Shown here: positions 3,675 through 48,247 of the stretch, piece after piece | Position numbering within the stretch: the first letter of the stretch is position 1 | Layout of the letters: each line of letters starts with the position of its first letter | Source: a virus | Lineage: Duplodnaviria; Caudoviricetes | IMG/VR virus record: IMGVR_UViG_3300010399_000044 | Coordinates: 1 to 56,124 of that record | DNA length: 56,124 bases | Reading direction: 5' to 3' (one strand) | Position numbers and translations under genes: made by a program | Notes under the pieces: generated by a model | Databases searched by the model: none | The model's input: the letters and a program-made list of their open reading frames with translations, nothing else | Told to the model about the DNA's origin: nothing

Positions 3675-3675
3675 C

Positions 3676-3749: not shown

Positions 3750-3769
3750 CAACCAACGATTGGAAGAGG

Positions 3770-3859: not shown

Positions 3860-3865
3860 TACAAT

Positions 3866-3941: not shown

Positions 3942-4027
3942 CATGACTTTAGTTGGCAGTAAACTCGGGGATGAGGAACTGTCTATGGTCCGGCGATGCC
4001 GTTCGCGGTGTATCGAGTGGCCTGTAA

Positions 4028-4099
4028 TCCAGCATAACTCAACGGCAGAGTTCCGACCTGTTAAGTCGGCGGTTCTTGGTTCGAATCCAAGTGTTGGAG
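4028..4099 (+). tRNA. tRNA-Asn(GTT)
   Basis: TCCAGCA/TGTTGGA; CCGAC-CTGTTAA-GTCGG; GGTTCGAATCC. Confidence 0.92.
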
Positions 4100-4101
4100 C
4101 A

Positions 4102-4178
4102 GGAGGGATGCCGAAGTGGACGAGGCACCGGTTTGTGAAACCGGTATCAGTGGGTTCGAGTCCCACCCCTACCGACCA
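4102..4178 (+). tRNA. tRNA-His(GTG), imperfect acceptor stem
   Basis: CCGGT-TTGTGAA-ACCGG; GTGGG-TTCGAGT-CCCAC; acceptor GGAGGG/CCCTACC has a bulge. Confidence 0.75.
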
Positions 4179-4193
4179 CGTCAAGGAGGATAG

Positions 4194-4265
4194 ATGAAGT
4201 ACGAAGTATGCATGGGTGGCTGTGGTGGTACGACACAGACCTGTACGTGTGAAGGAAAGCGATAA
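4194..4265 (+). CDS. Cys-rich microprotein, 23 aa (MKYEVCMGGCGGTTQTCTCEGKR)
   Basis: perfect AAGGAGG RBS; 4 Cys. Confidence 0.65.
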   Translation: MKYEVCMGGCGGTTQTCTCEGKR

Positions 4266-4267
4266 GC

Positions 4268-4348
4268 ATGGCAGACCCAGCTTGCCCGAGGTGTCACGGT
4301 ACCGGCTTCTTTTGGATGCTGGGCTCGTGGCGTCCATGTGGGTGTTAA
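4268..4348 (+). CDS. Cys-rich microprotein, 26 aa (MADPACPRCHGTGFFWMLGSWRPCGC)
   Basis: starts 2 nt after the previous stop; GAAGGAAAG upstream; CxxCxGxG...CGC. Confidence 0.65.
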   Translation: MADPACPRCHGTGFFWMLGSWRPCGC

Positions 4349-4355
4349 TCCCAAC

Positions 4356-4431
4356 CGTCCATTAGCTCAAGTGGTAGAGCAGGAGCTTCTTAAGCTCTCG
4401 GTTCCAGGTTCAAGTCCTGGATGGATGACCA
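4356..4431 (+). tRNA. tRNA-Lys(CTT)
   Basis: CGTCCAT/ATGGATG-A-CCA; GGAGC-TTCTTAA-GCTCT; GGTTCAAGTCC. Confidence 0.92.
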
Positions 4432-4499
4432 CACAGCACGGTGCTGTTACCAGCCGGAACGTTTGATTCCGGGGGTCCGTGTGCGAGGAATACAGGCAA

Positions 4500-4574
4500 T
4501 GCTGATTGGTGTAACTGGCAACACGGGTGGCTCTGAACCACCTGTTCTAGGTTCGAATCCTAGGTCGGCAGCCA
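4500..4574 (+). tRNA. tRNA-Gln(CTG)
   Basis: TGCTGAT/GTCGGCA-G-CCA; GGTGG-CTCTGAA-CCACC; GGTTCGAATCC. Confidence 0.92.
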
Positions 4575-4575
4575 A

Positions 4576-4651
4576 GGGGACATAGTTTAGGTGAGCAAAA
4601 CAGCGGTCTCCAAAACCGCAGTGCGAGGTGCAAGCCCTCGTGGCCCCGCCA
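4576..4651 (+). tRNA. tRNA-Trp(CCA)
   Basis: GCGGT-CTCCAAA-ACCGC; CGAGG-TGCAAGC-CCTCG; encoded CCA end. Confidence 0.85.
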
Positions 4652-4652
4652 A

Positions 4653-4726
4653 GCCGTTGTAGCTCAATATGGTAGAGCACCCGCCTTGTAAGCGGGTGGT
4701 TCGGGGTTCAAGTCCTCGTTGCGGCT
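4653..4726 (+). tRNA. tRNA-Thr(TGT)
   Basis: TAGCTCAA..GGTAGAGC; CCCGC-CTTGTAA-GCGGG; GGTTCAAGTCC. Confidence 0.88.
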
Positions 4727-4785
4727 CTTGTTCAGAAAAACCTCGTGTTCAAGTTTTCTGAACAGCACCACAAAATGAACACGCT

Positions 4786-4857
4786 GTGGGTGTAGCTCAG
4801 GGGTAGAGTGCCTCATTTGGGATGAGGAAGTCGTGGGTTCGAAACCCGCCTCCCGCA
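4786..4857 (+). tRNA. tRNA-Pro(TGG)
   Basis: TAGCTCAG..GGTAGAG; CCTCA-TTTGGGA-TGAGG; GGTTCGAAACC. Confidence 0.88.
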
Positions 4858-4880
4858 CGTTTGACAAGGGGGTGATGTAA

Positions 4881-28280: not shown

Positions 28281-30089
28281 CTAGTCAACGTCCGCGTACA
28301 AACTGCCCCATGAGCGACGACCAACCTCGGCATCCGTGTCGATGAAGACCGGACCAATAGTCTCACTCATGTGTCGTGCAACTTCGTTGGCTCCCCATTC
28401 TGCACGTGCCGTAGGCATAGACAGGAGGAGTTCGTCATGGATCGGAAGACGCATGTAAGGCCCAAAACCAGCCCTGTATGCCCTCAGGATGCCACGACAG
28501 GTCACGTCCCTACTGGATGACTGCACCATGTAGTTGAGAGCGCTGTAGGCCCTGCTACGGTCCACAGGGAGCCTACGCCCGAAGTACGTGGTGATATAAC
28601 CATCTCGCTCGGACAACTTCGCAAGCTTGTCCGCGTAATTGGTCACTCCGGGATACCTCTTGTCAAACGCCTCGACCACCTTCTTGGCTTGCATGAAAGT
28701 AAGTCCGGTTTGTTCGGCAACCACCTTGGCACCACCACCAAAGACACGGGCAAAGTTGGTGATCTTGCCCGCCTTGTATTCCTTGGTGTCCTTGAGGACA
28801 TGATCCCCGAAGGCTGCCTGAGCAGTCAGGAGATGAAGGTTCAGATCGTGCTTGAACGCATCGATCATGGTCTTGTCACCGCTCAGGGCTGCCAGAACAC
28901 GGAGTTCCTGCCCCTTGTAGTCCACGCTGACAATAGAATGACCCTCTTCGGCAACAAAGCACTTACGGATGGTGTAGTCAGACGCAGGAAGCGTCTGAGC
29001 CGGGATACCAGTGATCGACATACGCCCAGTACGAGCCTGGAGTGTGTTGATCGAGGCGTGGCACCTACCGTTGTCGTCCATGTTGTTGAGGAAGCCATCA
29101 ACCCATGTGGTACGCCACTTGCGTGCCTTCTTTGCCTTCTGTACAGCAATGGCAAACTCGTCGTTCTCTTTCACCAGCTTATCCAGGATTGTTTTGGACA
29201 CCTGAAGCTTGCCTGTCGGAGTCCTGTCCTTGAGGACAACACCCCTGTGAAGGAGAACCTCGGCTACTTGATCCGTGGAGTTCACATTCTCGCAGCCAAA
29301 CCGGGCTGCTATCTCGGAGTACTTCTCCTCTTGCTCGTGCAGTTCCATCGAGAGATTCTGTGTGTACTCCAGGTCAAGGAGGAACCCTCCCCGATCCATG
29401 TATGTGCACACCTCTGCGATCTCGTGCTCGAAGTGGATGAGCTGCACAGCCGAAGCCGGAATCAACTTACTCTGAATACCTTCGAGCCTAGCCGGGAAGA
29501 TGGTGTCCATCCCCGCATAGATGTTGTATTCAGGATGATTCAGGTCAACCTTTTCGAAGACCTTGGCCTTGGTGGTCTTGTACTCCTTGGCAATCTTGGA
29601 CATCAGACCCTTGACGTTGTCCGCCAGGTTTGGGTCCAGGTAATGCCGAACCAGGTCTTCCAGGGATACACCGATACCACCCTTGAGAGTATCTCGGGGA
29701 TCGATCAGCTTGGCTTGGATCTCCACATCGAAAGCCTTGGGCCAGAGCTTCTCCATCGGGATGCCCAGACACCTGTCGATAACCTTGAAATCGAAGGCAA
29801 GGTTCTTACCCACGATCTTCTCCACGGCCATCAGGGTCTGGATCGTCACGGTGATGTAATCACCACCTAGCTCAACCGGCAGCACCCATGCTTCGTTTTT
29901 GTTGCCGAACTGGACTAGCCGAAGACGATACCCTCGGGAGTAAATATCGAGCCCTGTGGTCTCCGTGTCAAACGCCAAGACCTTGAGGTTCTTCCGAACA
30001 AATTCCTTAAACAGTTCCAGGTCTTCGTAAGACTCCACCCGATGAACCCGGACTGGGTCACCCTGAACATGAATTGTCCATGTTTGCAT
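28281..30089 (-). CDS. DNA polymerase I (family A, 3'-5' exonuclease plus polymerase)
   Basis: DTETTGL, ARTGRMS, DYKGQELRVLA, KITNFARVFGGG, NYMVQSS, IHDEL. Confidence 0.97.
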   Translation of the reverse strand: MQTWTIHVQGDPVRVHRVESYEDLELFKEFVRKNLKVLAFDTETTGLDIYSRGYRLRLVQFGNKNEAWVLPVELGGDYITVTIQTLMAVEKIVGKNLAFDFKVIDRCLGIPMEKLWPKAFDVEIQAKLIDPRDTLKGGIGVSLEDLVRHYLDPNLADNVKGLMSKIAKEYKTTKAKVFEKVDLNHPEYNIYAGMDTIFPARLEGIQSKLIPASAVQLIHFEHEIAEVCTYMDRGGFLLDLEYTQNLSMELHEQEEKYSEIAARFGCENVNSTDQVAEVLLHRGVVLKDRTPTGKLQVSKTILDKLVKENDEFAIAVQKAKKARKWRTTWVDGFLNNMDDNGRCHASINTLQARTGRMSITGIPAQTLPASDYTIRKCFVAEEGHSIVSVDYKGQELRVLAALSGDKTMIDAFKHDLNLHLLTAQAAFGDHVLKDTKEYKAGKITNFARVFGGGAKVVAEQTGLTFMQAKKVVEAFDKRYPGVTNYADKLAKLSERDGYITTYFGRRLPVDRSRAYSALNYMVQSSSRDVTCRGILRAYRAGFGPYMRLPIHDELLLSMPTARAEWGANEVARHMSETIGPVFIDTDAEVGRRSWGSLYADVD

Positions 30090-30104: not shown

Positions 30105-30773
30105 CTATACGTAGCGGCCTCTCTGATCGATGTACCGGAGCATGTCTTCACGGGTTTCGATTCGCTCATACTCCTGGCACAGCGCCAGGTTGTCTTCTCC
30201 CAACACACGGTGTTCACTCCGGTGCCACAAGCACTTCAAGGTGTGGGGCAACGGTGTTCCATGACCATTCAACTTCCACACAGCCATTCTGAATGCCGAG
30301 TCCTCGGCCCCCCAACCTTCGAACCGTTCGTCAGATCCGCCGGTTTCCAGGAACACCTCTCGACGCAGTGCCATCACACCAGTCTGGAACGGAACAGCAA
30401 GGTTCTCATCGACGGCCAGCTCATCGCGGGGCCACCCGTCCACAATCATGTTGGTGGCGTATTCGTTGTAGTAGTCGGTCCTGTCGAACAAGGGAACCCA
30501 GGGAAGACCCGACTCCAACCAGTGGTAGCCATCTCGGATGGCATTGTAGTCCGGCAAACAATCCGCACCGAACTGCATGATGTATGGCTTGGTCGACATC
30601 CTGAACGCACGGTTCAGGGCACGCGAGCAGTTGAACGGACCACCTTCATCGTCAACCCCAACACACAGCTCAACCCCGAGGAACTCCCACTCCTTTCTGA
30701 TGTATTCCCAGACTCTTTCTCTTTGGGGATCTCCTCCCCTCCAAGGAATCAGGACACTGATATTGCTTAGCAT
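30105..30773 (-). CDS. glycosyltransferase, GT-A (GT2/galactosyltransferase-like)
   Basis: SVLIPWR, FNCSRALN, GAD, GGSDERFEGWGAED, CLWH. Confidence 0.88.
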   Translation of the reverse strand: MLSNISVLIPWRGGDPQRERVWEYIRKEWEFLGVELCVGVDDEGGPFNCSRALNRAFRMSTKPYIMQFGADCLPDYNAIRDGYHWLESGLPWVPLFDRTDYYNEYATNMIVDGWPRDELAVDENLAVPFQTGVMALRREVFLETGGSDERFEGWGAEDSAFRMAVWKLNGHGTPLPHTLKCLWHRSEHRVLGEDNLALCQEYERIETREDMLRYIDQRGRYV

Positions 30774-30786
30774 GTTCCTCCTAAGA

Positions 30787-30812
30787 GGAGGGGGTCCCGA
30801 AGGACCCCCTCC
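30787..30812 (-). terminator. stable UUCG hairpin (terminator/stabiliser)
   Basis: GGAGGGGGTCC-CGAA-GGACCCCCTCC on + strand (TTCG loop on - strand). Confidence 0.65.
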
Positions 30813-30817
30813 GAGAA

Positions 30818-31363
30818 TTACTTGTCGAACTGGGGCTTGCACTGTCCGGGAGTGTCCCGAGGAGTCGGGCAGAAGAACCCACTCCAGGCCTTGCCAGACG
30901 CACTAACGCCTGACTTGGGTACCATCTGGCCGTGAGGACAGGTCTTGACCACACCACCCTGTCCGGCAGCCGATGCAGCGGGCTGCCCAGACTGGGTCTG
31001 AGAGGCTCCCTGCTGCTGGGTAGGGGTCGGAGCAGGGGCCTTGTCTGCGAAGTACGCAGAGGCCTTCTGAGCCCTCTCAAGGAGGTCGGTGATCTGAGGA
31101 TCGTTGATCTGATCCAGAGCGTCACCCACATCCTTACCGTGGATCACAACCCACGGAGCATTGAATCCCACACCACCCTTCAGGGTCACGGTCACCTTGC
31201 CCTCACTGGAAGGAACCACAACAACCGGCTTCTCCGCAGGGCGGATCACGCCCTGCGAATCGATATCAGCCTGCGCCTCATCCCCAGGGGTGTCGTTCCC
31301 CTCAGGCGCGGTCTCAAAAGGGTCGGTCTCGAACGGGTCGGTCTTCTTCTTTGCGACTGCCAT
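30818..31363 (-). CDS. conserved Cluster A-type protein with C-terminal zinc ribbon (possible ssDNA-binding/recombination factor)
   Basis: TLKGG.G..APWVVIH, CPHG.M....G......W.GFFCP...QC. Confidence 0.65.
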   Translation of the reverse strand: MAVAKKKTDPFETDPFETAPEGNDTPGDEAQADIDSQGVIRPAEKPVVVVPSSEGKVTVTLKGGVGFNAPWVVIHGKDVGDALDQINDPQITDLLERAQKASAYFADKAPAPTPTQQQGASQTQSGQPAASAAGQGGVVKTCPHGQMVPKSGVSASGKAWSGFFCPTPRDTPGQCKPQFDK

Positions 31364-32011: not shown

Positions 32012-32752
32012 CTATGCCGAACCCCGAAGGTCGGTTAGTTGTTCTGACCTTCCACTGCGACTCCAAGCACCACAATCACATCGGTACTGTTGGTACTTCC
32101 CGAGGTTGGTGTACTTGAACCCGCGTCGATGTCCGACCCCTAGCTGATTTCCGCAGTTCGGGCAGGCATCCGTAGTGCCGTCGTAAAGCGCATGGCTTGG
32201 GTGGTTGGTGATCCAAGGCCTGAGTGTGTCATAGAGATTCTCGGTGAGTACAACATCCTGCTTGTTATACTTCCTCATTGAATCCCAGGCCTTCTTGTCA
32301 CCCGCCATGCACTTCACCCAGAGGGTGTGCCCAGCATGGGATGCTTTCCCACCAAGTCCAAGTTGCTGGGCAACATGGTCCAACTTATTCGAGGTGAACC
32401 TGAACTTGTTCCGCACCACCTTCAGAAGATCGATCTCCTGAAAGGAGGATGTAGGAGTCATGCCCCTGAGTAGGAACTCCCGCTTCAAATGCGGGATGTC
32501 AAACCGTGTCCCGTTGTAGTGCACAATCACATCGGCCTCATCGAGAAGGTCATAAGCCTTATCGATCATCACGTCAAACCCATCGTGGTATTCCGAGTGG
32601 AATGCCACCTTTGGCTTGTCGTGCCACTTGGCAGCAAAGCACATCACTCGGGTTGACTCACGTAGTTGGTTCAACGATACGTTCTGGTTGAACAGTGCCC
32701 AAACATCGGCAATGTTTGGGGACGTCTCAATATCTAGCGTCAAAATCTTCAA
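32012..32752 (-). CDS. DnaQ/RNase H-like exonuclease
   Basis: LDIETSP, HYNG.RFDIP, IDLL, YNKQDV, C-terminal CPNCG..C.CG. Confidence 0.88.
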   Translation of the reverse strand: MKILTLDIETSPNIADVWALFNQNVSLNQLRESTRVMCFAAKWHDKPKVAFHSEYHDGFDVMIDKAYDLLDEADVIVHYNGTRFDIPHLKREFLLRGMTPTSSFQEIDLLKVVRNKFRFTSNKLDHVAQQLGLGGKASHAGHTLWVKCMAGDKKAWDSMRKYNKQDVVLTENLYDTLRPWITNHPSHALYDGTTDACPNCGNQLGVGHRRGFKYTNLGKYQQYRCDCGAWSRSGRSEQLTDLRGSA

Positions 32753-37905: not shown

Positions 37906-38079
37906 TTACAGTCGGTTCAGATCGCGCTCGAAGGCTTCCAGCATCTTGATGGAGTTGCCCGCACACTCAGCGGCAACCTGCTGGTTGCGGAGCATGTAGG
38001 ACAGACCTTCCATTGCAAGGGTGTCCTTCATGATGTCGATCGCAACCTGAATCGAGGCCTTGGTGACAGTAGTGCTCAT
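37906..38079 (-). CDS. hypothetical protein, 57 aa
   Basis: GGAGAAGGA RBS; MSTTVTKASIQ... Confidence 0.6.
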   Translation of the reverse strand: MSTTVTKASIQVAIDIMKDTLAMEGLSYMLRNQQVAAECAGNSIKMLEAFERDLNRL

Positions 38080-38104
38080 GTTTCCTTCTCCTTTTGTTTG
38101 TTTG

Positions 38105-38535
38105 TCAGGGGGTGATGCCGATGGTGCTGCCCATCTGGGCGAACATCTGGTCGGTCCACACGTGGATGTACGGACCCATGATGTAGATGAATGCCCACAG
38201 ACCGAAGATGGACATCACCGTACGAAACGCAGAGAGCTTGAACATCTACTACTTCATCTCCTTGTCGTCATTTACCCAAGATTCTGTGACCATGAATAGC
38301 CCTACGAAACCGGCTCCGATGGCGAACTCTTTCAGTTGCGCGATCCAACACACGATGGCTACACCACCAAAGCACAGACCGCCAAACAACCATGCCAGCC
38401 TCATGCAGTTACCCCTGCGGCAACCATGACGGTGGCCAGGACCAACACCACCGTGCCGACAGCCTTGGACTTGCTGTACAGCCCAAGCCCGATGAGGGCG
38501 AGGACACCTGCGATGATCAGACTCGAACTGTGCAT
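38105..38535 (-). CDS. three tandem small membrane proteins (38401-38535, 38249-38404, 38105-38245)
   Basis: 44, 51 and 46 aa hydrophobic ORFs with RBS or overlaps. Confidence 0.55.
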
Positions 38536-38553
38536 TGTTTTCTCCTTTGATTT

Positions 38554-39483
38554 TTAGAAATCACCGTCTGCTACCTGAAGTACTGTCAACCCAATGGAAC
38601 GGTAAGCCGCAACAACCCTGTTGCGGTCGTCGTATGCCCGCTTGATGTTCCAGTTACCCCTGATGTGCTTGTCGAAGAGTTCCAGCTTCACGACCGCATC
38701 GTTGCGGGTGTCGCCTTCCGAACGCATGAATAGTCCTGCAATAGGAACCTTGACTTCCTGGTACAACCACTCCTCGGACACCCCGAAGAACTTGTGACTA
38801 CGACCAGACCCGAACACGATCTTGTTTCCGAGGTCGTAGTACTCGTGCCTCACGATGTCAATGATGGGGAGGTTGGGCTTGTCCAGGTGATACCTGGAGG
38901 TGTCGTACGGGCCTCTCACACCATCGTGGAGAGCCACAGTCCCATCGATGTCCACCAGCACCGCGTCTGGCAGGCTGGTGTCCGGAACGTACAACTCATG
39001 CTGTGGGATCGTGAACTTCCCCCGCACAGCAGGCTCAACCGGAGTCTTGCCTTGGAGTGGGGTGACGTAGCGCTGGAACATGTTCCGGATTACATCTTCC
39101 GGAACGGGGTGTTCGCGCTTGGAGTTCCTTTCCAAGCAGGTTTCCAGCGGAACCCAGGTGAAATCTACCTGGCACCACTCCACACCAAGACGCTCTGCGA
39201 TCAAGGCCAGAGGCCTACGGTACGCAGTCTTCAGGTTGCAGTCGTGAACAACAACCCGAAGGCCACGACTCAAAGCCTTGTCGATCATCGAGTGTTCCAG
39301 TGCCGTGATCTCGTTCTCCTGATCCGAGGTCAGACCCAGCTTGGTACCGTACAGGGTCAGCCTCAGGTCATCCCTGGAGATGGCCACAGCCTCACCAGGA
39401 GGAAGACTCGCTACGATCTCTCGTGCGAAGGTGGTCTTCCCAGAACCGGGAAGACCCACACAGATGTACAGCTCCCCGCTCAC
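38554..39483 (-). CDS. polynucleotide kinase/3'-phosphatase (T4 PseT-like)
   Basis: GLPGSGKTT, RDD.R, DIDGT HAD motif, SGR, DDR. Confidence 0.95.
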   Translation of the reverse strand: MSGELYICVGLPGSGKTTFAREIVASLPPGEAVAISRDDLRLTLYGTKLGLTSDQENEITALEHSMIDKALSRGLRVVVHDCNLKTAYRRPLALIAERLGVEWCQVDFTWVPLETCLERNSKREHPVPEDVIRNMFQRYVTPLQGKTPVEPAVRGKFTIPQHELYVPDTSLPDAVLVDIDGTVALHDGVRGPYDTSRYHLDKPNLPIIDIVRHEYYDLGNKIVFGSGRSHKFFGVSEEWLYQEVKVPIAGLFMRSEGDTRNDAVVKLELFDKHIRGNWNIKRAYDDRNRVVAAYRSIGLTVLQVADGDF

Positions 39484-39599
39484 TTCTCTTCTCCCTCTTG
39501 TGCGAAGGGGTCCTCATCCGGACCGCAGGTCAGACAGAACACAGATCCGCAAGGCCCCCAAGTTCCGTCTTTCAACTGGGTGTTTCCGTTGCAGTTCAT
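39480..39599 (-). CDS. Cys-rich microprotein, 39 aa
   Basis: MNCNG...PCGSVFCLTCG; 4-nt overlaps on both sides. Confidence 0.55.
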   Translation of the reverse strand: MNCNGNTQLKDGTWGPCGSVFCLTCGPDEDPFAQEGEEK

Positions 39600-39781
39600 G
39601 CTGCCAACTCCAGTTCCTTGAGTGGTTCGGGGAACTCCAGTGCCACATCAACACCATGACAAATGCAGTTACACGGAGTCTTGATGATTCTCCGGAACAG
39701 ATCCGAGTGGATCATTCCGTTGAAGCAAAACTCCAGGTCATCCTCATTGAACCCGCAGTCACACGGGCTGGGAATGCTCAT
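39596..39781 (-). CDS. Cys-rich hypothetical protein (C.C...C.C.CH)
   Basis: ATGA overlap. Confidence 0.55.
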   Translation of the reverse strand: MSIPSPCDCGFNEDDLEFCFNGMIHSDLFRRIIKTPCNCICHGVDVALEFPEPLKELELAA

Positions 39782-40869
39782 GGTTTCGCCACCTTCGTCT
39801 GTCCCTTGGGTTCGAACTGCTTGTAGATGTACTGGGTGTAGTCCATTCCGTCCCACATGCACCACAACACCTTCTGTACCCATCGTGGTGCGTCTCGGGT
39901 CATCCTTGCAAGTTCCTTGCGGGCAGACCGGTCGCCCCGTGCGAACAGCTCGTCTACCTCAGGGATAAATCGAGTCTCTTCGACAAGCGTAATGTGGTCC
40001 TGAAATTTTTGGAGAAATGGAGAGGCCGTGATGTCCATCCACTCATGGAACTCGTCTGGCATCCCCTTCTTGTACTCCTCGAACCTTCCGTCCTTCAGGG
40101 ATTCCCAGACAGTCTTCTCGGACAGGTTGAACACCAACTTGTGCTTGTCGATGTAGTCTTGCTGCTTGATCTTGACTCGCTCATCGGTGTCCAGGTACCT
40201 GACTACGAAACCCTCTGCGTTCTCACGAGGCAACGCCGATACAACCTCACCAAGCGTGAAGTACCACGAGATGTTCACGGCTGCACCGTTCCACGAAGAC
40301 CAAATACCCGCGTCTTCCATACCATCTGGGTTGTAGGTCTTACCCGTCTTGATGTCGATACCCTCAATCAGGGCGAGGTAACGAGCATCTCCGTAGTCCA
40401 GGACGATCCTGTTCTCGGGGTAAATGATCTCCCACAATGGGGTCACACCCTCAGGCGGAAGCCAATCGGGGTAATACTTGTGCAGCATCCAGGTTCCTTC
40501 GATAGCCTGGGGGCTATCGAAGCTTCCCTTGGTGGCGATATAACACTTACCCTCCCAGACATACCCAATGCCCAGAGACCCATCCATCTTGTCGGTTACT
40601 TCTACCTGTGCTTCGTAATCCACACGAGCCCCAGGCTCGCCCAGGTTGAAGAACTTGGGGAAGGGACGCGCGAGAATTTCACCTGTCTTTTCGTGCCAGA
40701 TCAATCCGCGACACGCTGTAGTGACCTGGTTCCATTCCCGCTTGACTACCGCATCCTTGGTGTAGGTAGCGATACACAACGGAAACGAGGGGTGGAACTG
40801 GATGCGAACCATCCCCTCGTTCACCATGTCCAACAGCAGTTGCGGATCGAAGATGTCTCCGATCCTCAT
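39778..40869 (-). CDS. RNA ligase (T4 Rnl1-like)
   Basis: CRGLI, RPFPKFFN, KMDGSLG, ATKGSF.S, EIIYPENRIV, EGFVV, VKIK. Confidence 0.93.
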   Translation of the reverse strand: MRIGDIFDPQLLLDMVNEGMVRIQFHPSFPLCIATYTKDAVVKREWNQVTTACRGLIWHEKTGEILARPFPKFFNLGEPGARVDYEAQVEVTDKMDGSLGIGYVWEGKCYIATKGSFDSPQAIEGTWMLHKYYPDWLPPEGVTPLWEIIYPENRIVLDYGDARYLALIEGIDIKTGKTYNPDGMEDAGIWSSWNGAAVNISWYFTLGEVVSALPRENAEGFVVRYLDTDERVKIKQQDYIDKHKLVFNLSEKTVWESLKDGRFEEYKKGMPDEFHEWMDITASPFLQKFQDHITLVEETRFIPEVDELFARGDRSARKELARMTRDAPRWVQKVLWCMWDGMDYTQYIYKQFEPKGQTKVAKP

Positions 40870-40871
40870 GC

Positions 40872-41240
40872 TTACTCCTCTTCGTAGACCGTGATGGTCT
40901 TCTGCTTCGGGAACACTTCCTTGAAGGTCCCGTCGAAATCGCACCCGTAGTACGAACCGTACCAACCCAGCTTCTTGAAGAACCTGGACTCGAACGAGAA
41001 TTTCTTGGTTCCGTCGACATGCGGGGAAACCTCTACAACAACCTCAACGTATTCCCCACCACCTTCATGACCACCCACAGTCTTGATCGTACGGGCCATG
41101 TACTGGTCGTTGAGGCGTACGAACTCACCATCTCCGCCCTCGTTGAGCCAGTAGTGCCAGGAGAAATGCTCGGTGTAGGTCTCTCCGTCGTATTCGTATG
41201 ACCTCTGACCCGAGGTCAGAAGATCCTCGAAGTAGCTCAT
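40872..41240 (-). CDS. G-x3-SY family protein, paralog 1
   Basis: GGHEGGG...FFKKLGWYGSYYG..FD...EV....KTITVYE. Confidence 0.75.
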   Translation of the reverse strand: MSYFEDLLTSGQRSYEYDGETYTEHFSWHYWLNEGGDGEFVRLNDQYMARTIKTVGGHEGGGEYVEVVVEVSPHVDGTKKFSFESRFFKKLGWYGSYYGCDFDGTFKEVFPKQKTITVYEEE

Positions 41241-41869
41241 CACCATCCTCCTGAATCCGACGACGAGTACGGACCAGAATCCGAGCTACCCCCTCCAGAA
41301 TAGGAGCTGCTGCTCCCGGAATCTGACGGAGCGCTCCACGAGCTTCCGCTGTCGTACGAAGTCATGCTCTGAGGTGCCTCGTAAGAGAGGCTAGGAGCCT
41401 CGTACACGGGAGAAACCGTCTCCTGAGGGTAATCATACCCGGAAGGGCTGTCCGGGGCCTTAGAGACGCTCTCAGGGCTGGTTTCCTCGTTCTGGTAGAA
41501 CCACGCCTCATCGAACGCCGTTCCCGCCACGTACATTTCGAAGTCGTGGCCGTCGTGGTATGGATTCTTGATCTTCCGCTCCCTCAACACACGATCTGTG
41601 TTCTGCGCCTGGATCAGGTAGTTCGTGCCCCTGTTCGTGGCCTTGGGAGTCTGGGTGTACACCTTCGCGATGTCATCCCAGACGACACCACCCTTGAGCC
41701 GAGCCCCGGCTACCACACCATCCTGACGGTTGTAGGTCACCGCCTTCATAGGCTTCTCCTCGGGCTCAGGCTGCTGCCTGATAGGCTCCTTGTGCGGGAC
41801 CGGAACCGGCTTGTTCTTCTTCTGCCTTCGGGTCAGCTTGGCCACCAGGTCAGAAAAAATGTTCCTCAT
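41240..41869 (-). CDS. hypothetical protein with Ser/Asp/Gly-rich tail
   Basis: SSYDSGSS...SSSDSGGW low-complexity C-terminus. Confidence 0.65.
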   Translation of the reverse strand: MRNIFSDLVAKLTRRQKKNKPVPVPHKEPIRQQPEPEEKPMKAVTYNRQDGVVAGARLKGGVVWDDIAKVYTQTPKATNRGTNYLIQAQNTDRVLRERKIKNPYHDGHDFEMYVAGTAFDEAWFYQNEETSPESVSKAPDSPSGYDYPQETVSPVYEAPSLSYEAPQSMTSYDSGSSWSAPSDSGSSSSYSGGGSSDSGPYSSSDSGGW

Positions 41870-41954
41870 ACTAAATCCTCATTCCTGGCCTCAAATTTTG
41901 GTGAAATTCTAGAAGCCGGAACTACTAGGAACCCCGAAGGATTCCTAGAAGAAC

Positions 41955-42335
41955 CTACTCGTAGAAGGTCACTTCACGAACAACCGCGTTCACCTCGGAC
42001 AGCGGACCCTCGTAATACCCGCCGTCATAAGAGGCGTAGTAGCCTCCCAACTTGTAAAGCTGTTCACAGCCTCCGTAGAAGACGACTAGGAAGACCATGT
42101 AGTACTCGTCTCCCTGGCCTTCACCGCCGAAGGACTCGATGACACTGACCTCACCCAGACCATGAACCGTCACAGGACTGCCATCGTTCTCGGCCCAGGC
42201 ATCCCAGCCCTCGGTCTCCCAATGACCACCAGGAGTGGAATAGGAACCATCCTGCGAAGTCCAGGGCTCGTTATAGCCCCTGAACACGTGGCTCTCGATC
42301 AGGTCAGATACTTCCTGTTCGCTCATATCAGCCAT
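41955..42335 (-). CDS. G-x3-SY family protein, paralog 2
   Basis: FGGEGQG..Y.MVF...YKLGGYYASYDG..YE..L.EV....REVTFYE. Confidence 0.75.
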   Translation of the reverse strand: MADMSEQEVSDLIESHVFRGYNEPWTSQDGSYSTPGGHWETEGWDAWAENDGSPVTVHGLGEVSVIESFGGEGQGDEYYMVFLVVFYGGCEQLYKLGGYYASYDGGYYEGPLSEVNAVVREVTFYE

Positions 42336-42699
42336 AGTAAACAGATGTCCTCTCCTTCTTCTCAACGTTCACCAGTCGTTCGTTCCACTCGATCCCGTCG
42401 TACGAACTCCAGGCACCGGTAACCTTGACGAAGTTGTCGTAGCCGATCTCGAACACCATGGATACGTCTACAGACCCGTAGCCCTCAAGCTCGTCTCGGT
42501 CTTCCGGAGTCTTCTGGACCATTTCGTAGGTCTTACCATCACGGTAGTGTTCCTCGCCTACCTTCCAGTATTCCCACCCCGCCTGAAGACCGGTGGTTCC
42601 CCACTTCCCGATCTCGTCACAGATCGACAGGATGTGGAAGTAGTCCTGAGACTGACCTTCCTTTACCGACTGCCCGCAGGCGCTGCACGTCTCGCTCAT
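42328..42699 (-). CDS. G-x3-SY family protein, paralog 3
   Basis: EGYG...MVFEI..FVKVTGAWSSYDG.EWN..L.NV....RTSVYY. Confidence 0.75.
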   Translation of the reverse strand: MSETCSACGQSVKEGQSQDYFHILSICDEIGKWGTTGLQAGWEYWKVGEEHYRDGKTYEMVQKTPEDRDELEGYGSVDVSMVFEIGYDNFVKVTGAWSSYDGIEWNERLVNVEKKERTSVYYG

Positions 42700-43103
42700 C
42701 AGACCCCCTCGAAGATACTCTCGAAGACCTGAACGGTCTTCTCCACGATCCGAACCTCTCGGAGAGGGTTGTCCCACGACACATTGCCATAGGAGTTGGC
42801 AGTTCCACCCTTGCGGAAGTACAGCTCGGTACCATCCGACTCGGTCACCTTCAGGATGACCCACGCATCGAACTCGGAACCCTGCCGGTACTCACCATCA
42901 CCGTACCCCGGACCCCACGAGTCCTTGTCGTGCTTGTCGACGGTTTCGACCTCAGCGCCATTCGACAGGCTTCGCTTGAAGGTCCTGTACACGCCCTGGT
43001 AGCTGCCCAGCTTGTAGTCGTAGTCCCCGTCGTAGGCGGTCTCCCAGTCGATGTCCGCATCGAATAGGAGCTGTTCGTACTTGCACTTCACACACTCACT
43101 CAC
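42699..43103 (-). CDS. G-x3-SY family protein, paralog 4
   Basis: WVILKV...YFRKGGTANSYG..SWD..L.EV...EKTVQVFE. Confidence 0.75.
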   Translation of the reverse strand: MSECVKCKYEQLLFDADIDWETAYDGDYDYKLGSYQGVYRTFKRSLSNGAEVETVDKHDKDSWGPGYGDGEYRQGSEFDAWVILKVTESDGTELYFRKGGTANSYGNVSWDNPLREVRIVEKTVQVFESIFEGV

Positions 43104-43468
43104 TTAGTGCCTCCCGATCCACTGGATGATCTCGATTGCGCCCCACACGCCCAATCCCGTCAGGGCCACGCCGACAAGCAACATGAACCAGAACCAGGCG
43201 ATTGCCATCTTTACTGCTGTCTCTTCCTTCACTTGTTCTCCTTCTCAGAACAAAGCGGCAGCCAGGATGACCACCACCATCAGAGCAATGCAGAAACATA
43301 CGACGGCAATCGAGAAGCCGTTGTCTTCCCTCGTCATCGTTTACCTCCGTTGATCGCAGCAATGACAATCCAGAACGGAAGCCATACACCGCAGGTACAT
43401 ACCGTCACGATCAAGTGAAGTGCGTGGTTGGTCCCCTTCTTCTGTGGGGGATAAGGCTGATACGTCAT
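43104..43468 (-). CDS. three tandem small membrane proteins (43334-43468, 43245-43337, 43104-43232)
   Basis: NHALHLIVTVCTCGVWLPFWI; IAVVCFCIALMVVVILAAALF; AWFWFMLLVGVAL. Confidence 0.55.
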
Positions 43469-43642
43469 TCTTCCTCATTCAGTTGTCTAGTACGGATACT
43501 TCGTAGTGGTAGAAATCTGTGGGGAACTTGTCGTCGTCCAGGAACACTCGGATGTAATCCGCAGTCCAAGAGATCACATCACCTTCCATCCCCAGAAGCT
43601 CCTGTTCGTCTTCTGGGGCGTGGATAACCCGAACCCGACCCG

Positions 43643-43978
43643 TCACTTGGTGAACATCTCCCTGAAGGTCTGGCGCAGTGTTCGTGGCTCACGAATCCAC
43701 AACTCTCCGGAAGCTGGGCCCGAAACTCCCAACTTCTGGGAAATCTCGAACTCCCACCTGTATCGAATCGTGAGCGCGTACAGCGCTTCCCGCCTGTCTT
43801 TGAATTCTGCGCATTCCGGCATCCAAGAACGGGAAGCATGTTCCGTGTAGAACACCTTGCACCACTCGCCAGGTCGTTCTGCTGCCTTGTTGGCGACGCA
43901 TCTCGCCCATTCGAGGTATTCCAGTTCCTTCTTCTCTTTCGGAGTCAGAGGAAGCGGACCAAACTCTACTTCACACAT
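43643..43978 (-). CDS. hypothetical protein
   Basis: TGATG overlap with the nucleotidyltransferase gene. Confidence 0.6.
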   Translation of the reverse strand: MCEVEFGPLPLTPKEKKELEYLEWARCVANKAAERPGEWCKVFYTEHASRSWMPECAEFKDRREALYALTIRYRWEFEISQKLGVSGPASGELWIREPRTLRQTFREMFTK

Positions 43979-44742
43979 CAGACCCTCACCAACTTGTGTG
44001 ACTTGGACAGGTGTCGCTGGATGTAATCCGAACCCGGAGTCAGGAAGAGTTCCGCGTTGTCCAGGATGGTCCTTGCGGTCCAGCCCTTGGTCAGACTGGT
44101 CGCAGTACGCCTGAAGGCCCACCAGTAAGCCGCACCCGGACTCACATCGTAATCCTTGGGGACAACAACGCGTTCGAGTGCAGTCACGAAGATTTCCTCC
44201 TTGATGAGGTCGACAAACCTCTCAAGCGGAAGGGCCTTCAGCTTCTTCATGTCGATGTCGACCTCAGCCCCATCCTTCAGGACCTCGGTGTAGATCGGGT
44301 GCTCACCATAGGCCACCGAGTCATGAAGGCTGTCATGATCGTACGTGCGTCGCACGGCGTCATCGAAGAACTCTGCCTTGTCTTGGGCAAGGTCCATGAC
44401 TTTGACCCCGTGAGTATCTTCCCAAACGGAGTACAACAACTTGTGTAGTTGCAGATCCAGAACAGCCCCTGCACGCTTGAGCTGTACGATGTCGTAGACA
44501 TGCTTTTCCCAGGTATTGTTATTCAACTCCCACTGTGCATGGGACACCTTGATGGTGTACAGCTCGTCAAGGGTGGCAAACCTGAACGAGTCGTCGCCGA
44601 TCCACTCGCGAAGCGACTCATGCCAGAATGAATCCCACTCAGGATTATTGGGGTTGTCACTGAAAACGTCGACATCCTTGGGATAGCGCGCCCCCGGAAG
44701 GAAGCGCGCCATCGCCGTGGAGCCGACCACGAGTGTCGGCAC
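43978..44742 (-). CDS. Pol-beta-superfamily nucleotidyltransferase-like protein
   Basis: VVGSTAM...KDVDV (hGS-x-DxD), LYTIK.SH..W, DHDSLH, EE..V.ALER, TSLTKGW. Confidence 0.72.
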   Translation of the reverse strand: MPTLVVGSTAMARFLPGARYPKDVDVFSDNPNNPEWDSFWHESLREWIGDDSFRFATLDELYTIKVSHAQWELNNNTWEKHVYDIVQLKRAGAVLDLQLHKLLYSVWEDTHGVKVMDLAQDKAEFFDDAVRRTYDHDSLHDSVAYGEHPIYTEVLKDGAEVDIDMKKLKALPLERFVDLIKEEIFVTALERVVVPKDYDVSPGAAYWWAFRRTATSLTKGWTARTILDNAELFLTPGSDYIQRHLSKSHKLVRV

Positions 44743-44751
44743 AGCTTCTCC

Positions 44752-45216
44752 TTAGATGTAGGAAACCTCGTCCACACCATGCGTGGACCGGATGTAGTCC
44801 AGGTCGTGAGCGTAGCCCTCGGCCCCGTCACGGGCGTGCTTGCGCTTGGCCTCGGTCAGGTCTTCACCCATCCGGAACAGGTCGTGCTCCACCTCGTACC
44901 AGAAGTCGCCCTCGGAGTCCAGGACCCTGCGGGTACCGTCCTTCAGGATCTCGGTGAGCACATCCCGAAGCTTGGTGGCTTCCTCGCGGCTGAGGGCTGC
45001 CTGTACCACATCAGCCTTGAACACCTTGCCGGTCTGTTCCAACTTGATGTGCACGCCACCGCTGAACACACCAGACTCCTTGACCGTGAACCGCCGGGAA
45101 AGCGTGGTGTCGATCACTTCCTTGATCTCGACCTCCGTCTCTTCGATGGTCAGACCATCCGGGAGGTTGGTCGGCTTGATGGTGGACGTACCCGTGACGC
45201 TGTAAACCTTACGCAT
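44752..45216 (-). CDS. hypothetical protein, paralog of 45316-45990
   Basis: YSVTG.S..KP..LP.GL; one WYEVE domain. Confidence 0.7.
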   Translation of the reverse strand: MRKVYSVTGTSTIKPTNLPDGLTIEETEVEIKEVIDTTLSRRFTVKESGVFSGGVHIKLEQTGKVFKADVVQAALSREEATKLRDVLTEILKDGTRRVLDSEGDFWYEVEHDLFRMGEDLTEAKRKHARDGAEGYAHDLDYIRSTHGVDEVSYI

Positions 45217-45315
45217 TGTTTTTCTCCTTTGATTTGAGACAAAGTCTCAACTCTGAGTGGTCAGGCTTTGCCTGAACCACGTGTGATCTGAAATTTTGGT
45301 GGATTTGTGGAAGTC

Positions 45316-45990
45316 TTACTCGGGGACCTGAACGAAATCGTCACGGTAGATGCCACGCACGTCGCTGAGGTTCCGACCAAAGTCGGTGTTGCCCACCTCT
45401 ACCGCACCCTTGTAGCTGTCCTCGGCAATCGACCTGGAACCAGCCCACACAACCCATTCCGGCTTGACCTCGTACCAGTGTGACCTGGTGCTGGTACCAT
45501 CCGAGAACTTCCGGAGCTTGGTCTCCCCGGACAGGGTCCCGTTCGGGTAACTCAACTTCAGGCTCTCGAAGCTGTCGTAACCGAACCCGCTCCGGTACTC
45601 GCCCTCAGAGATCCTGACAGCCGCTGCCCGACTCCTGGCCGTCACGAACCACTCAGGTTCGATCTCGTACCACACACCAGAGCTGGTGGTGTACTCGCGG
45701 AGTTCCTGCTTGTAGGAATCCGCGACCTCGATCAGCCACTCACCGATCTTTCGTGCATCCTCGATCTTGAAGGATCGCATCGTACCTTCGAAGTCGACCC
45801 GAACCCAGCCCGTGTTGCGCACGATTCCAGGCTTCTCCTCGAACGTGCAGGTACGACCTCCGTTCGAAACCACGGTCAGAGTAGGGAAGGTCTTGCTGTC
45901 TTCCACCACCTGAAGACCTTCAGGGAGGCCCTCAGGCCTGGTGCTGCTGGAACCGTTGACACTGTACGTCGTCTTCACTTGTTCTCCCAT
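45316..45990 (-). CDS. hypothetical protein with duplicated WYE(I/V).PEW domain
   Basis: YSVNG.S..RP..LP.GL; WYEIEPEWFVTARSR and WYEVKPEWVVWAGSR. Confidence 0.7.
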   Translation of the reverse strand: MGEQVKTTYSVNGSSSTRPEGLPEGLQVVEDSKTFPTLTVVSNGGRTCTFEEKPGIVRNTGWVRVDFEGTMRSFKIEDARKIGEWLIEVADSYKQELREYTTSSGVWYEIEPEWFVTARSRAAAVRISEGEYRSGFGYDSFESLKLSYPNGTLSGETKLRKFSDGTSTRSHWYEVKPEWVVWAGSRSIAEDSYKGAVEVGNTDFGRNLSDVRGIYRDDFVQVPE

Positions 45991-46256
45991 TCTTTGATGA
46001 TCTCCAAAGCTTTCTTATGAAGCCTTTCCGAATTCTCTTCGGAGAACCGAGGCCACATGTGGTTACACTTCTCGCACTTCCATATCAGGATGCCGTCATA
46101 GACACCCTGAACCTCAATGCCCAGTTTGGTGGACGAGTACTTGGTTTCTCCTACTTCCCAGTCGCCGTAGTACCCACCGGACAGCAACGCCACGGAAATC
46201 TCTTCACCACGGAAACTTTCTCCGCATTTTCCGCAGAACTCCTCTTCATCCATCAC
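45975..46256 (-). CDS. zinc-ribbon hypothetical protein
   Basis: CGKCG...GIE..GVYDG...W.C.KC. Confidence 0.65.
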   Translation of the reverse strand: MMDEEEFCGKCGESFRGEEISVALLSGGYYGDWEVGETKYSSTKLGIEVQGVYDGILIWKCEKCNHMWPRFSEENSERLHKKALEIIKEWENK

Positions 46257-46699
46257 ATCTCCTGGGTGAACTTGAAAATAGGGATTCCCCGTTCTTCGGC
46301 AAACCCGATCGTGCTGGCAGTCCCAGGAGTTCCACCACAGTCAAAGGCCAGGAGGAAGTAAGCCCTTGCCACGATGGACTCATTCCTAACGTGGTAGGCC
46401 CGTGGACTCCCGTAGATGTCAAACAGCGGCTCATGAAGATAAGCCTTTCCCTCACCTAGGAAAGGCCACGCCTCCAGGCACAGAGCGTCCGCTCCAGCCT
46501 TGCAGTGTCCATTGTGCATGACCGCATCGGGGAAGAACATCCCAACAGCACCCAGCGCCATAGCAACCATTCCGAGGTCTGTGTAGCCCCGTGAGCCGCT
46601 CACTCCGAACTGGACAGGGCTGGGTAGGGTCAAGTCCTGTAGGTAGGCGTACAGGCGCAACAGGACGTCGTTGTTGTTACCCACGTTCACACACCTCAC
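46253..46699 (-). CDS. SLOG-superfamily protein (YspA/DUF2493, 'DprA-like')
   Basis: VSGSR.Y.D, G.C..GAD, RN..IV, LAF..G...GT..TI..A...GIP. Confidence 0.8.
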   Translation of the reverse strand: MRCVNVGNNNDVLLRLYAYLQDLTLPSPVQFGVSGSRGYTDLGMVAMALGAVGMFFPDAVMHNGHCKAGADALCLEAWPFLGEGKAYLHEPLFDIYGSPRAYHVRNESIVARAYFLLAFDCGGTPGTASTIGFAEERGIPIFKFTQEM

Positions 46700-46832
46700 G
46701 AATCACATGCTTGACGTAGCGGTCTACCGTGATGTCTGGGTTTTGCGCTTGTACCCGTCGTAGGAACAGCTCCAGATCGGCCAAATCGACATACCTTCGT
46801 CCGTTGGCCCTTATGTAGTTAACTTTGCTCAT
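46677..46832 (-). CDS. hypothetical protein, 51 aa
   Basis: ATGA overlap; AAAGGAG RBS. Confidence 0.5.
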   Translation of the reverse strand: MSKVNYIRANGRRYVDLADLELFLRRVQAQNPDITVDRYVKHVIREVCERG

Positions 46833-47044
46833 TTGTCGTCATCTCCTTTCAGCATCTGCACAACCCACCAGCCCGGAATGAACAGCGGCCAGAGCCAACA
46901 GCAGCAGAGGCCTCCAAGCGCGGCCATCCAGTAATCGCCTGTGTCGTTCTCTCCGAACGAGCTGTCATCCAGGATGAACCTGGCAATGGGCACAAGAAAC
47001 ACCATGCACCCCGCGAGGTAAACAATAAGTATGATCGTGCCCAT
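46829..47044 (-). CDS. small membrane protein
   Basis: two TM segments, WPL. Confidence 0.65.
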   Translation of the reverse strand: MGTIILIVYLAGCMVFLVPIARFILDDSSFGENDTGDYWMAALGGLCCCWLWPLFIPGWWVVQMLKGDDDK

Positions 47045-47056
47045 TGCCGATCCCTT

Positions 47057-47827
47057 CTAGGCCATTGCGAAGTTACACGAGCTTCGGACAGAACAGAACT
47101 GACACGTCTCGACGCTAGGTTTCGGATCAAAGTTCTCCGCTTTGATCTGTTGGTCTGCTTCACCGTACACATCGGCAAGCCTCTGGATCGACCAACCACT
47201 CAAGTCGTAGTCTCGTGTGGGCTTGCCTTGCTGGGCCATCCAATACCGACCGGTCTTGAACGGGAGGTCATACTTGACGTTCAACGCACCCGCATAGGTT
47301 GCTAGCTGAAAGTCTGATCCTGGCTTCTTACCGGTCTTCAGGTCTTCGGGCTCTCCACTCTCAACCTTATCAATCAAACCCCTAACCGGGATTCCACCGA
47401 ACTCCACATCGAATGACAACTCGATGGCCAATCCATCAGGGCTGACCCACGGGACCTTTTCTGGGTACTTCTCGTAGTACCCAATGTAGGTTTCTACCTG
47501 GGCAATACCGATGCTCCACCTGCGTTCGACGTCGGTACGTCCGTTGTAAGGCCCTGAGCGCTCCCAGAAGTCGAAGTTAGGAGTTGTGGCAGCATACTTT
47601 GCTACCTCGTCCGTGTACGACTGTTTGAAAGCGTTCTGAGCCTCTTCCAGGCTCATGGTACGGCCCGACTTCTCCCACATCTCAGCCGCGTAGTGGACTG
47701 CGGTGCCTTGCGGGAGCCATGCTGCGGGTTTCTTCCAGGCTCGTTCGATACGTCCGAGGCGATACGCCTCGGGACACCGTTCCAGTTCGTTTACCTGAGA
47801 AACACTCCTATATGTTGGTACTCCCAT
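47057..47827 (-). CDS. RecB-like/Cas4-family PD-(D/E)XK exonuclease
   Basis: RSVSQ...CP, GTAVH, RGLID, DLKTG, QL.TY, C.FC.V...C. Confidence 0.92.
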   Translation of the reverse strand: MGVPTYRSVSQVNELERCPEAYRLGRIERAWKKPAAWLPQGTAVHYAAEMWEKSGRTMSLEEAQNAFKQSYTDEVAKYAATTPNFDFWERSGPYNGRTDVERRWSIGIAQVETYIGYYEKYPEKVPWVSPDGLAIELSFDVEFGGIPVRGLIDKVESGEPEDLKTGKKPGSDFQLATYAGALNVKYDLPFKTGRYWMAQQGKPTRDYDLSGWSIQRLADVYGEADQQIKAENFDPKPSVETCQFCSVRSSCNFAMA

Positions 47828-47833
47828 CTGTGC

Positions 47834-48247
47834 CTAACCCTTCCAAAATGCTGCCATTGCGAAACACAGACCGATGATAACAAGGATGATGATCCCTACC
47901 ACCGCTTTGGAACCCTGCGACAATTCCCCCGAATAGGCCAACATGATTACATTTCCCTCCTTTCCTTATTTGGTCTTGCCCGAAATGATAAGACAGAAGA
48001 ACAGTAGTGACGTGAACACGACCCCGGAAAAGAAACCCTGGATCATCTCGTAGGTTATCACCACTTGTCCTTGTCGTTGTTGCCGCCGTACTTGTCGTGC
48101 AGGTACAGCCCCAGCAGCAACAGGACTATCGCTCCTGCGAAGTAGTAAATACCCATGCTATCCCTTCCACGGATGAGATGCTGCGAGCATCAAAGCCAGC
48201 ACGAGGGGTACGACCACGAAGCAGAACCACAGAATCAGCGCATCCAC
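47834..48247 (-). CDS. four tandem single-TM microproteins (48158-48247, 48058-48156, 47966-48064, 47834-47944)
   Basis: 29, 32, 32 and 36 aa, each with one hydrophobic helix; abutting or overlapping with RBSs. Confidence 0.55.

Follow-up and report, generated by a model that had tools for sequence, protein, structure and literature searches.

What does a nucleotidyltransferase (NTase) of the Pol-beta type do in a phage that encodes, next to it, four versions of one small protein? The question is raised by the virus record IMGVR_UViG_3300010399_000044 (Duplodnaviria; Caudoviricetes), which was analyzed over its whole length of 56,124 bp, in the following called the window. Its minus strand carries the gene of a 254-amino-acid (aa) NTase (43978-44742), comprising an N-terminal catalytic core and a helical domain, DUF7275, as assigned by means of Pfam, PHROG and an AlphaFold2 (AF2) model. 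In the direction of transcription it is followed by four paralogous genes (42699-43103, 42328-42699, 41955-42335, and 40872-41246), whose products we refer to as partners. A preliminary description of this DNA had placed the cassette on a single strand; its genes are found at the positions given there, all of them on the minus strand, and the stop codon of the NTase gene is indeed located 875 bp upstream of the first paralogue. Based on comparative analysis, we are confident that the cassette represents a real and conserved two-component phage module, in which the enzyme and its partners work together and are probably in contact.

Linkage of the NTase and partner genes

The linkage was evaluated from both sides. 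On the NTase side, 80 viral contigs with NTase identities of 33-86% were analyzed including 10-kb flanks, and 77 of them carry between one and four same-strand partner genes downstream of the NTase gene; the other three contigs are cut off right after the NTase gene or just 684 bp beyond it. From the partner side, a search with partner motifs derived from a 12-sequence alignment placed an NTase gene just upstream in 74 of 79 viral loci. On the contigs of the remaining five (L156/L157, L158, and L159/L160), the genes upstream of the partner belong to DUF932, UPF0227 or no known family. Merging of both sets resulted in 113 unique viral NTase loci, 110 of which have downstream partners on the same strand. 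Both genes are also carried by every bacterial-genome locus (17/17), and the two loci that were inspected show a prophage-like setting among phage replication genes. An independent distribution of the two families, which the preliminary description had named as the outcome that would speak against a module, is therefore not observed, considering the adjacency in these three sets as well as three gene fusions.

The number of partner copies varies across the 113 loci, with one copy in 35, two in 34, three in 24, and four in 17 of them, placing the window at the upper end of the range. Between the stop codon of the NTase gene and the aligned part of the first partner lies a median of 88 nt; thus, the partner abuts the NTase in most other phages, unlike in the window with its intervening small genes. 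The layout of the window is shared by Gordonia phage WilliamBoone and Streptomyces phage Circinus, and the module is also found in Gordonia phages of the Smoothie group. The partner gene is situated downstream of the NTase gene in Vibrio phage K460 and immediately upstream of it in the KVP40-like Vibrio phage VH1_2019. Among the carriers of the module, the Smoothie group, Circinus, and K460 belong to host-phage pairs that are in culture and not pathogenic. A third conserved gene was not detected among the neighbors, each of which is present in at most about a fifth of the loci. The occurrence of similar gene pairs in unrelated phages, mentioned in the preliminary description, is thereby confirmed, and no published functional description of these pairs was found.

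Gene fusions and long-form NTases

Both components occur in covalently joined form in three natural fusions, namely the 395-aa protein P0327 (NTase and partner), an Alteromonas phage protein of 383 aa (DUF7275 and partner), and a reading frame of Nocardia ninae combining DUF7277, DUF7275, and the partner domain. In a tblastn search of P0327 against cultured phages, none of the 642 matching records covered 80% of the query; consequently, the Alteromonas phage fusion is known from its BFVD row alone. Since natural fusions exist, the partners most likely bind the NTase. A complex prediction for the NTase and the 41955-42335 partner, performed without controls, scored 0.00 in both runs and is used neither for nor against such binding.

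A group of long-form NTases, bearing an insertion after the catalytic motif, consists of RB69 ORF134c and its homologues in Salmonella, Acinetobacter, Stenotrophomonas, and Pseudomonas phages. These long forms occur in T4-like and jumbo phages, as seen at loci L084 (RB69 ORF134c) and L165 (Salmonella phage SE_PL gp310), and the homologue of phage SE_PL resides among genes for an RNA ligase, a kinase, a phosphoesterase, and a DNA ligase.

The partner family and its four members in the window

The proposed relationship of the four open reading frames (ORFs) was substantiated by the PHROG profiles, with phrog_18295 being matched by all four and phrog_8206 by three of them, and the C-terminal core described previously is present in each of the aligned sequences, which show 28-31% identity in the alignment. 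The first paralogue in transcription order (42699-43103; 134 aa) matches phrog_8206 (E 1.4e-9), phrog_18295 (E 2.9e-7), and the hidden Markov model (HMM) of the family (E 2e-30). The 123-aa protein encoded at 42328-42699 is the most divergent of the four (phrog_18295 E 7.6e-5, family HMM E 2e-13), and the one nearest to the family consensus (GGEGQGD ... GGYYASYDGG) is the 126-aa product of 41955-42335 with an isoelectric point (pI) of 4.05 (phrog_18295 E 1.7e-11, phrog_8206 E 1.7e-17). For the paralogue of 122-124 aa at 40872-41246, the respective values are E 5.9e-10 (phrog_18295), E 6.9e-10 (phrog_8206), and E 1e-23 (family HMM). Pairwise BLASTP similarity is weak, with 27-31% identity and E-values of 5e-5 to 0.02 in five of the six pairs, and is not significant for the pair par1/par3. 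Despite this, we consider the homology of the four ORFs settled, because an independent profile library matches all of them. The invariant columns of the four-paralogue alignment (given as seven) comprise the start Met, two Val, three Gly, and the Ser-Tyr pair.

Neither phrog_18295 nor phrog_8206 carries a functional annotation, and no real Pfam family match was obtained for the four window paralogues and 49 partner sequences. The family is nevertheless large: out of 1.84 billion proteins, a profile of 49 members retrieved 3,452 cluster representatives with E <= 0.001, of which 1,311 reached E <= 1e-10. The N-termini, described initially as unrelated, are variable; however, an N-terminal helix is common to many family members and is seen at residues 6-14 of the 41955-42335 model. 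Two paralogues start with a CxxC motif (MSECVKCK... in 42699-43103 and MSETCSACG... in 42328-42699), which is retained in their orthologues. To judge from the sequences, this pair of cysteines, absent from the other two paralogues, may form half a zinc knuckle. A few tandem two-domain members exist as well, e.g., P0189 (268 aa) and P0193 (284 aa), in which the first repeat is devoid of the GGEGxG loop while keeping the G-x3-S turn.

Conservation was assessed across 206 family members. One Gly and the Ser four residues later are invariant (206/206), and the loop GGEGxGD is nearly so. The residue following the Ser is Tyr in 136, His in 36, Phe in 27, and Trp in 7 members; therefore, the Tyr of the "SY" pair cannot be a universal acceptor. 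Regarding the previous suggestion of this pair as a nucleotidylation site, the Ser is left as the conserved candidate, whereas the Tyr drops out. Furthermore, the partners are uniformly acidic, all 206 having a pI below 5.2 (median 4.37, maximum 5.18), making them poor candidates for RNA binding and weakening the idea of RNA-binding adaptors.

The fold was modeled for one paralogue, 41955-42335 (AF2, predicted local distance difference test (pLDDT) score 80.3). The model consists of the N-terminal helix, a poorly defined stretch, and four long antiparallel strands arranged as a meander, with the Gly-rich loop joining the first two long strands and the Ser located in the turn joining the last two. 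From this strand order, loop and Ser turn are predicted to be at the same end of the sheet. By profile homology, the other three paralogues would be expected to adopt the same fold. Comparison of the model with known structures gave a best E-value of 0.3 (Foldseek against PDB) and a best Z-score of 4.5, to unrelated proteins (VIA-align against 48,161 chains), and PDB sequence searches with the partner and NTase profiles were empty. Among BFVD models, the significant matches were exclusively uncharacterized phage proteins of the same family. Two candidate identities were rejected as too weak, a T4 Y04K-type protein (atlas cluster score 0.83) and a "nucleotide reductase subunit C" (Foldseek rows with E 0.15-0.29).

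In a tree of 246 partner domains, each window paralogue is placed in a clade of its own together with partners from 4-21 other loci, with clade supports ranging from 0.42 to 0.99; the clade of 42699-43103, at the lower end (0.42), contains partners from 20 loci and no other window paralogue. As these separate clades are shared with other loci, the four copies represent old lineages that have been maintained separately, rather than products of recent duplication.

Family, motifs and fold of the NTase

The 254-aa protein carries the motifs VVGSTAM...KDVDV and DHDSLH, as read before. With VVGS at residues 5-8 and DVDV at residues 23-26, it conforms to the Pol-beta pattern hG[GS] plus [DE]h[DE]h. 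An alignment of 47 sequences showed D23 and D25 to be invariant, whereas G7, S8, and D37 are conserved to at least 90%; D37, a candidate for the third catalytic carboxylate of the superfamily, is part of strand 36-39 of the model. K65 and D84, likewise invariant, fall into the segment matched by Pfam to AbiEii positions 132-216 and are candidates for motifs III (Lys) and IV (Asp) of the DUF1814 active site. Since the residues of the catalytic motif are conserved, the protein looks like an active enzyme, as far as its sequence can tell.

Within Pfam, residues 61-234 match DUF7275 with E 7e-53 (179.7 bits, cut-off 27) and the N-terminal part matches DUF7277 weakly (E 1.2e-4; 23.2 bits, below the cut-off of 27); the accessions of DUF7275/DUF7277 are PF23940 and PF23942. 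The corresponding PHROG family is phrog_6944 (E 1e-91). A score of 22.1 bits for AbiEii (PF08843) is just below the cut-off of 22.5. Considering 47 relatives at E < 0.01, DUF7275 is found in all of them, DUF7277 in 39, and AbiEii in 7. Structural comparison of the AF2 model (pLDDT 90.4) corroborated the assignment, with Pol-beta NTases taking all of the first ten ranks among 48,161 chains (VIA, Z 4.6-6.8). The list is headed by the AbiEi C-terminal domain, MenT1, MenT4, and TglT (Z 6.1-6.8) and completed by a fungal NTase-like protein, ANT(2''), Rv2827c, a Helicobacter NTase, TM1012, and LnuA. In a protein atlas, the nearest named clusters are AbiEii/DUF6036/DUF2204 NTases, which is taken as a lead only. 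Two specific identities were ruled out, that of RlaP by the lack of a PF10127 match at E <= 0.1, and that of a class II CCA enzyme by the lack of a PolyA_pol (PF01743) match in the whole record, given that 10 of 14 control genomes were matched.

Gene order and RNA-repair context

The record is estimated to be 100% complete (CheckV) and has a GC content of ~55%. The window region gave no megablast match to cultured phages, i.e., no close DNA relative was found among them. The closest cultured relatives of the studied proteins stem from Gordonia, Streptomyces, and Mycobacterium phages, so that the host is probably an actinobacterium. Structural genes occupy the plus strand up to ~24 kb and are followed by a long minus-strand block of replication and nucleic-acid genes, including a two-part DNA polymerase, a DnaB-like helicase, an exonuclease, a polynucleotide kinase, and an RNA ligase. 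The DNA polymerase seems to be split into a polymerase part (28281-30089, minus strand) and a separate exonuclease subunit (32012-32752, minus strand), with a galactosyl-transferase-like gene (30105-30842, minus strand) and other ORFs in between. A 148-aa protein encoded at 46253-46699 (minus strand) weakly matches phrog_289, annotated as "GTP-binding domain" (E 2.4e-6).

For the interval separating the NTase gene from the first partner gene (43104-43977, minus strand), the ORF list contains one ORF of up to 159 aa, one of 55 aa, and two of 42-44 aa. The 159-aa and 55-aa ORFs have no family match in Pfam or PHROG and relatives in 2-3 of the 113 loci; the two smallest ones look membrane-spanning by eye. 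Three of the paralogues are arranged in tandem, the stop codon of one overlapping the start codon of the next; in the gene at 42328-42699, the overlap of its start with the preceding stop codon amounts to 1 nt. The fourth is separated from them by a 209-aa ORF with a long tail rich in Ser, Gly, and Asp (41240-41869, minus strand), which lacks a Pfam or PHROG match, has relatives in just 3 of 113 loci and probably does not belong to the module. A promoter and terminator scan of 38000-48200 returned fewer sites than shuffled sequences and is therefore uninformative on the operon structure.

The stop codon of the paralogue at 40872-41246 lies 2 nt ahead of the likely ATG of a T4 Rnl1-type RNA ligase gene (39778-40965, minus strand; PF09511 E 2.6e-14, phrog_562 E 4.4e-61), and a polynucleotide kinase-phosphatase (PNK) gene comes next (38554-39483, minus strand; phrog_505 E 2.6e-82). 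In T4, tRNA cleaved by the anticodon nucleases of the host is repaired by the Rnl1/PNK pair. The adjacency to this pair, emphasized in the preliminary description, holds in the window; it is not a fixed trait of the module, though, since only 28 of the 113 loci have one or both genes at a distance of up to 10 kb (Rnl1-type ligase in 23, PNK in 22). In phage Circinus, the module is enclosed by RNA ligase/PNK on one side and a second RNA ligase on the other. Of the 113 loci, 75 have tRNA genes no farther than 10 kb away, and 32 have them no farther than 1 kb away. The window itself encodes an array of ten tRNAs (Ile, Leu, Arg, Asn, His, Lys, Gln, Trp, Thr, and Pro; 3600-4858, plus strand). An encoded CCA is missing in six of these ten genes, and the phage has no classical CCA enzyme, a task for which the host enzyme could be used. 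In related loci, 372 of 508 phage tRNA genes are likewise without an encoded CCA.

Proposed function and alternative explanations

The explanation we favor, tentatively and at somewhat less than even confidence, is a template-independent addition of nucleotides to RNA 3' ends, foremost those of tRNA, under the control of the acidic partners. The first component would be the DUF7275/DUF7277 Pol-beta NTase, catalytically intact by its motifs and structurally nearest to MenT/AbiEii (DUF1814), and the second a small acidic alpha+beta protein in one to four copies. During infection, such an activity might serve phage RNA repair or tRNA upkeep. The partners would gate or direct the enzyme, e.g., by occupying its RNA-binding face until it is needed. 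Binding, substrate and partner role, and hence the function as a whole including RNA or tRNA as substrate, are what we infer from the context described above.

Several observations weigh against parts of this interpretation. The structural likeness to MenT is modest, given that a Z-score below 8 can reflect a common arrangement, Foldseek with the NTase model yielded no match at E <= 0.001 (best row E 0.39), and hhalign against two bacterial AbiEii homologues aligned GS...DxD alone, with probabilities of 5% and 0.1%. Because of the modest Z-scores and the restriction of the profile alignment to the motif, we assign the enzyme to the Pol-beta superfamily with a MenT/AbiEii-like architecture, and not to DUF1814 itself. 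The tRNA density is approximately flat over 9 kb upstream of the module with a slight rise over the first kb on the downstream side, a nearby tRNA gene is missing from 13 of the 17 bacterial-genome loci, and the tRNA array of the window is ~36 kb away from the cassette; the RNA context is therefore suggestive but not compelling. Regarding the linkage, the loci are mutually related and their counts do not represent independent events, none of five long-form NTases has a partner within 4 kb, and the five partner loci mentioned above, corresponding to three distinct contigs, lack a DUF7275 NTase within 10 kb even with filters off.

These last points are what one would expect if there were no functional tie at all, the adjacency being inherited synteny, largely among related actinophage-like contigs, of families that work separately. 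We regard this as highly improbable, since the adjacency persists down to 33% NTase identity and on contigs of 4-313 kb while other neighbors change, spans actinophages, Vibrio phages, and a Cellvibrionaceae metagenome-assembled genome, is kept in VH1_2019 even though the partner has moved upstream, and culminates in three gene fusions. Assuming a tie, the enzyme might act on its partners instead of on RNA, placing a nucleoside monophosphate (NMP) on their invariant Ser, with the modified partners serving as effectors, e.g., versus host defense proteins. Such protein nucleotidylation, which we consider unlikely, would account for a Ser and a preceding Gly retained without exception in 206 sequences, for the predicted proximity of Ser turn and Gly-rich loop at one end of the sheet, for the tight tie evident from fusions and adjacency, and for several old paralogues per genome, fitting several substrates of one enzyme. 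However, Tyr follows in just 136 of the 206, an invariant Ser/Gly in a tight turn can be purely structural, and for the enzymes structurally closest to the NTase the substrate is tRNA and not protein. A related and rather doubtful possibility is that a MenT-like NTase loads a nucleotide onto this Ser of interchangeable carriers, whose variable N-termini would aim at different host targets in a modular counter-defense; included in the same doubtful estimate is a variant in which the acidic partners, as mimics of tRNA acceptor ends, would lure away host toxins that attack tRNA, with the NTase mending the damage.

The structural matches could also point to a toxin with its inhibitor, i.e., a MenT-like translation poison for host shut-off or prophage addiction whose positively charged active-site cleft would be blocked by acidic partners. 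MenT toxins are the best structural matches, the small protein MenA1 blocks electropositive cavities of MenT1 (PMC10435456), the partners are acidic throughout, and actinobacterial chromosomes harbor the module in prophage-like regions. We nonetheless judge it improbable, to about the same degree as the carrier model, as the enzyme comes first and the partner second, the reverse of MenAT loci (menA1 upstream of menT in 15/21, PMC10435456), up to four old and distinct paralogues per enzyme are odd for an antitoxin, three covalent fusions exist, most phages with the module look lytic and have tRNA arrays, and the partner does not resemble the helical MenA1. Interference with nucleotide signals, by an NTase making or capping a messenger or by partners that sponge immune signaling nucleotides in a Gly-rich pocket, appears very unlikely. 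Small, abundant, multi-copy partners with a conserved Gly-rich loop would suit a sponge; yet no sequence or fold match to known sponges was obtained in PDB and Pfam searches, and these sponges need no enzyme partner, whereas the present family almost always sits beside an NTase. An atlas cluster of the Thoeris inhibitor Tad3 (rank 29, score 0.81) was within the noise range of the tool, i.e., at chance level, and was not used. Nucleotide addition to RNA ends, with gating by the partners, thus continues to be the explanation we prefer.

Novelty and comparison with known systems

Systems that pair a Pol-beta NTase with a protein partner of its own are known as a kind. In contrast, this NTase family, the partner family and their linkage appear to be undescribed. 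A full-text literature search, covering neither subscription journals nor supplementary files, retrieved no paper naming DUF7275, DUF7277, PF23940, PF23942 or phrog_6944, and among the titles and opening lines of abstracts listed on DUF1814, bacteriophage, tRNA, and counter-defense, none concerned this NTase family. So far, the NTase family is named just as domains of unknown function, and the partner family is without a Pfam model. Their near-obligate linkage and the fusions provide a clear and cheap experimental handle. Should the enzyme indeed have tRNA ends as its substrate, the classic phage Rnl1/PNK repair pair would be joined by a third activity, which would also be relevant to how phages withstand tRNA-targeting defenses.

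Four known systems can be compared with the cassette. Class II CCA enzymes (PolyA_pol, PF01743), carried by some large phages (PMC7824862), are similar as template-independent NTases building or mending tRNA 3' ends; the cassette NTase is much smaller and has another C-terminal domain. RlaP is a Pol-beta NTase encoded beside RNA ligases in phages and bacteria, which extends damaged RNA 3' ends by one or two NMPs and renders the repaired tRNA functional again (bioRxiv 10.64898/2025.12.29.696909; PMC7824862). The position of the window cassette directly upstream of Rnl1 and PNK resembles this arrangement. The enzymes belong to different Pfam families, however, an obligate small partner is not described for RlaP in the available parts of these sources, and ligases are neighbors in just about a quarter of the cassette loci.

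In HepT/MntA, a HEPN/MNT or type VII toxin-antitoxin system, the minimal NTase MntA AMPylates its partner HepT. With a small Pol-beta NTase gene beside a partner gene, it is by analogy a possible precedent for the nucleotidylation idea; the cassette partner differs by the absence of a HEPN match, by its predicted fold, and by a candidate acceptor Tyr that is not conserved. The closest likeness in architecture is to MenT/AbiEii, sharing a Pol-beta core (hG[GS], DxD) followed by a helical C-terminal domain and the pairing with a dedicated small protein, and MenT1, MenT3, and MenT4 extend the acceptor ends of tRNA by nucleotides (PMC10435456). Homology to this group is not established by the profile alignments; the 254-aa NTase stays below the PF08843 cut-off, and only 7 of 47 relatives match at E < 0.01. 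Instead of an upstream AbiEi/COG5340 protein or the helical MenA1, the cassette has a beta-rich, acidic partner of a new family, downstream and often in multiple copies, and none of the window genes upstream of the NTase matched an AbiEi/COG5340/MenA-type antitoxin in Pfam or PHROG. Moreover, MenT/AbiEii are found in chromosomal toxin-antitoxin loci, whereas the cassette is phage-borne. Pairs of Pol-beta NTases and partners such as MenAT, AbiE, and HepT/MntA are central to toxin-antitoxin and anti-phage biology, and the cassette looks like a phage-side counterpart of them.

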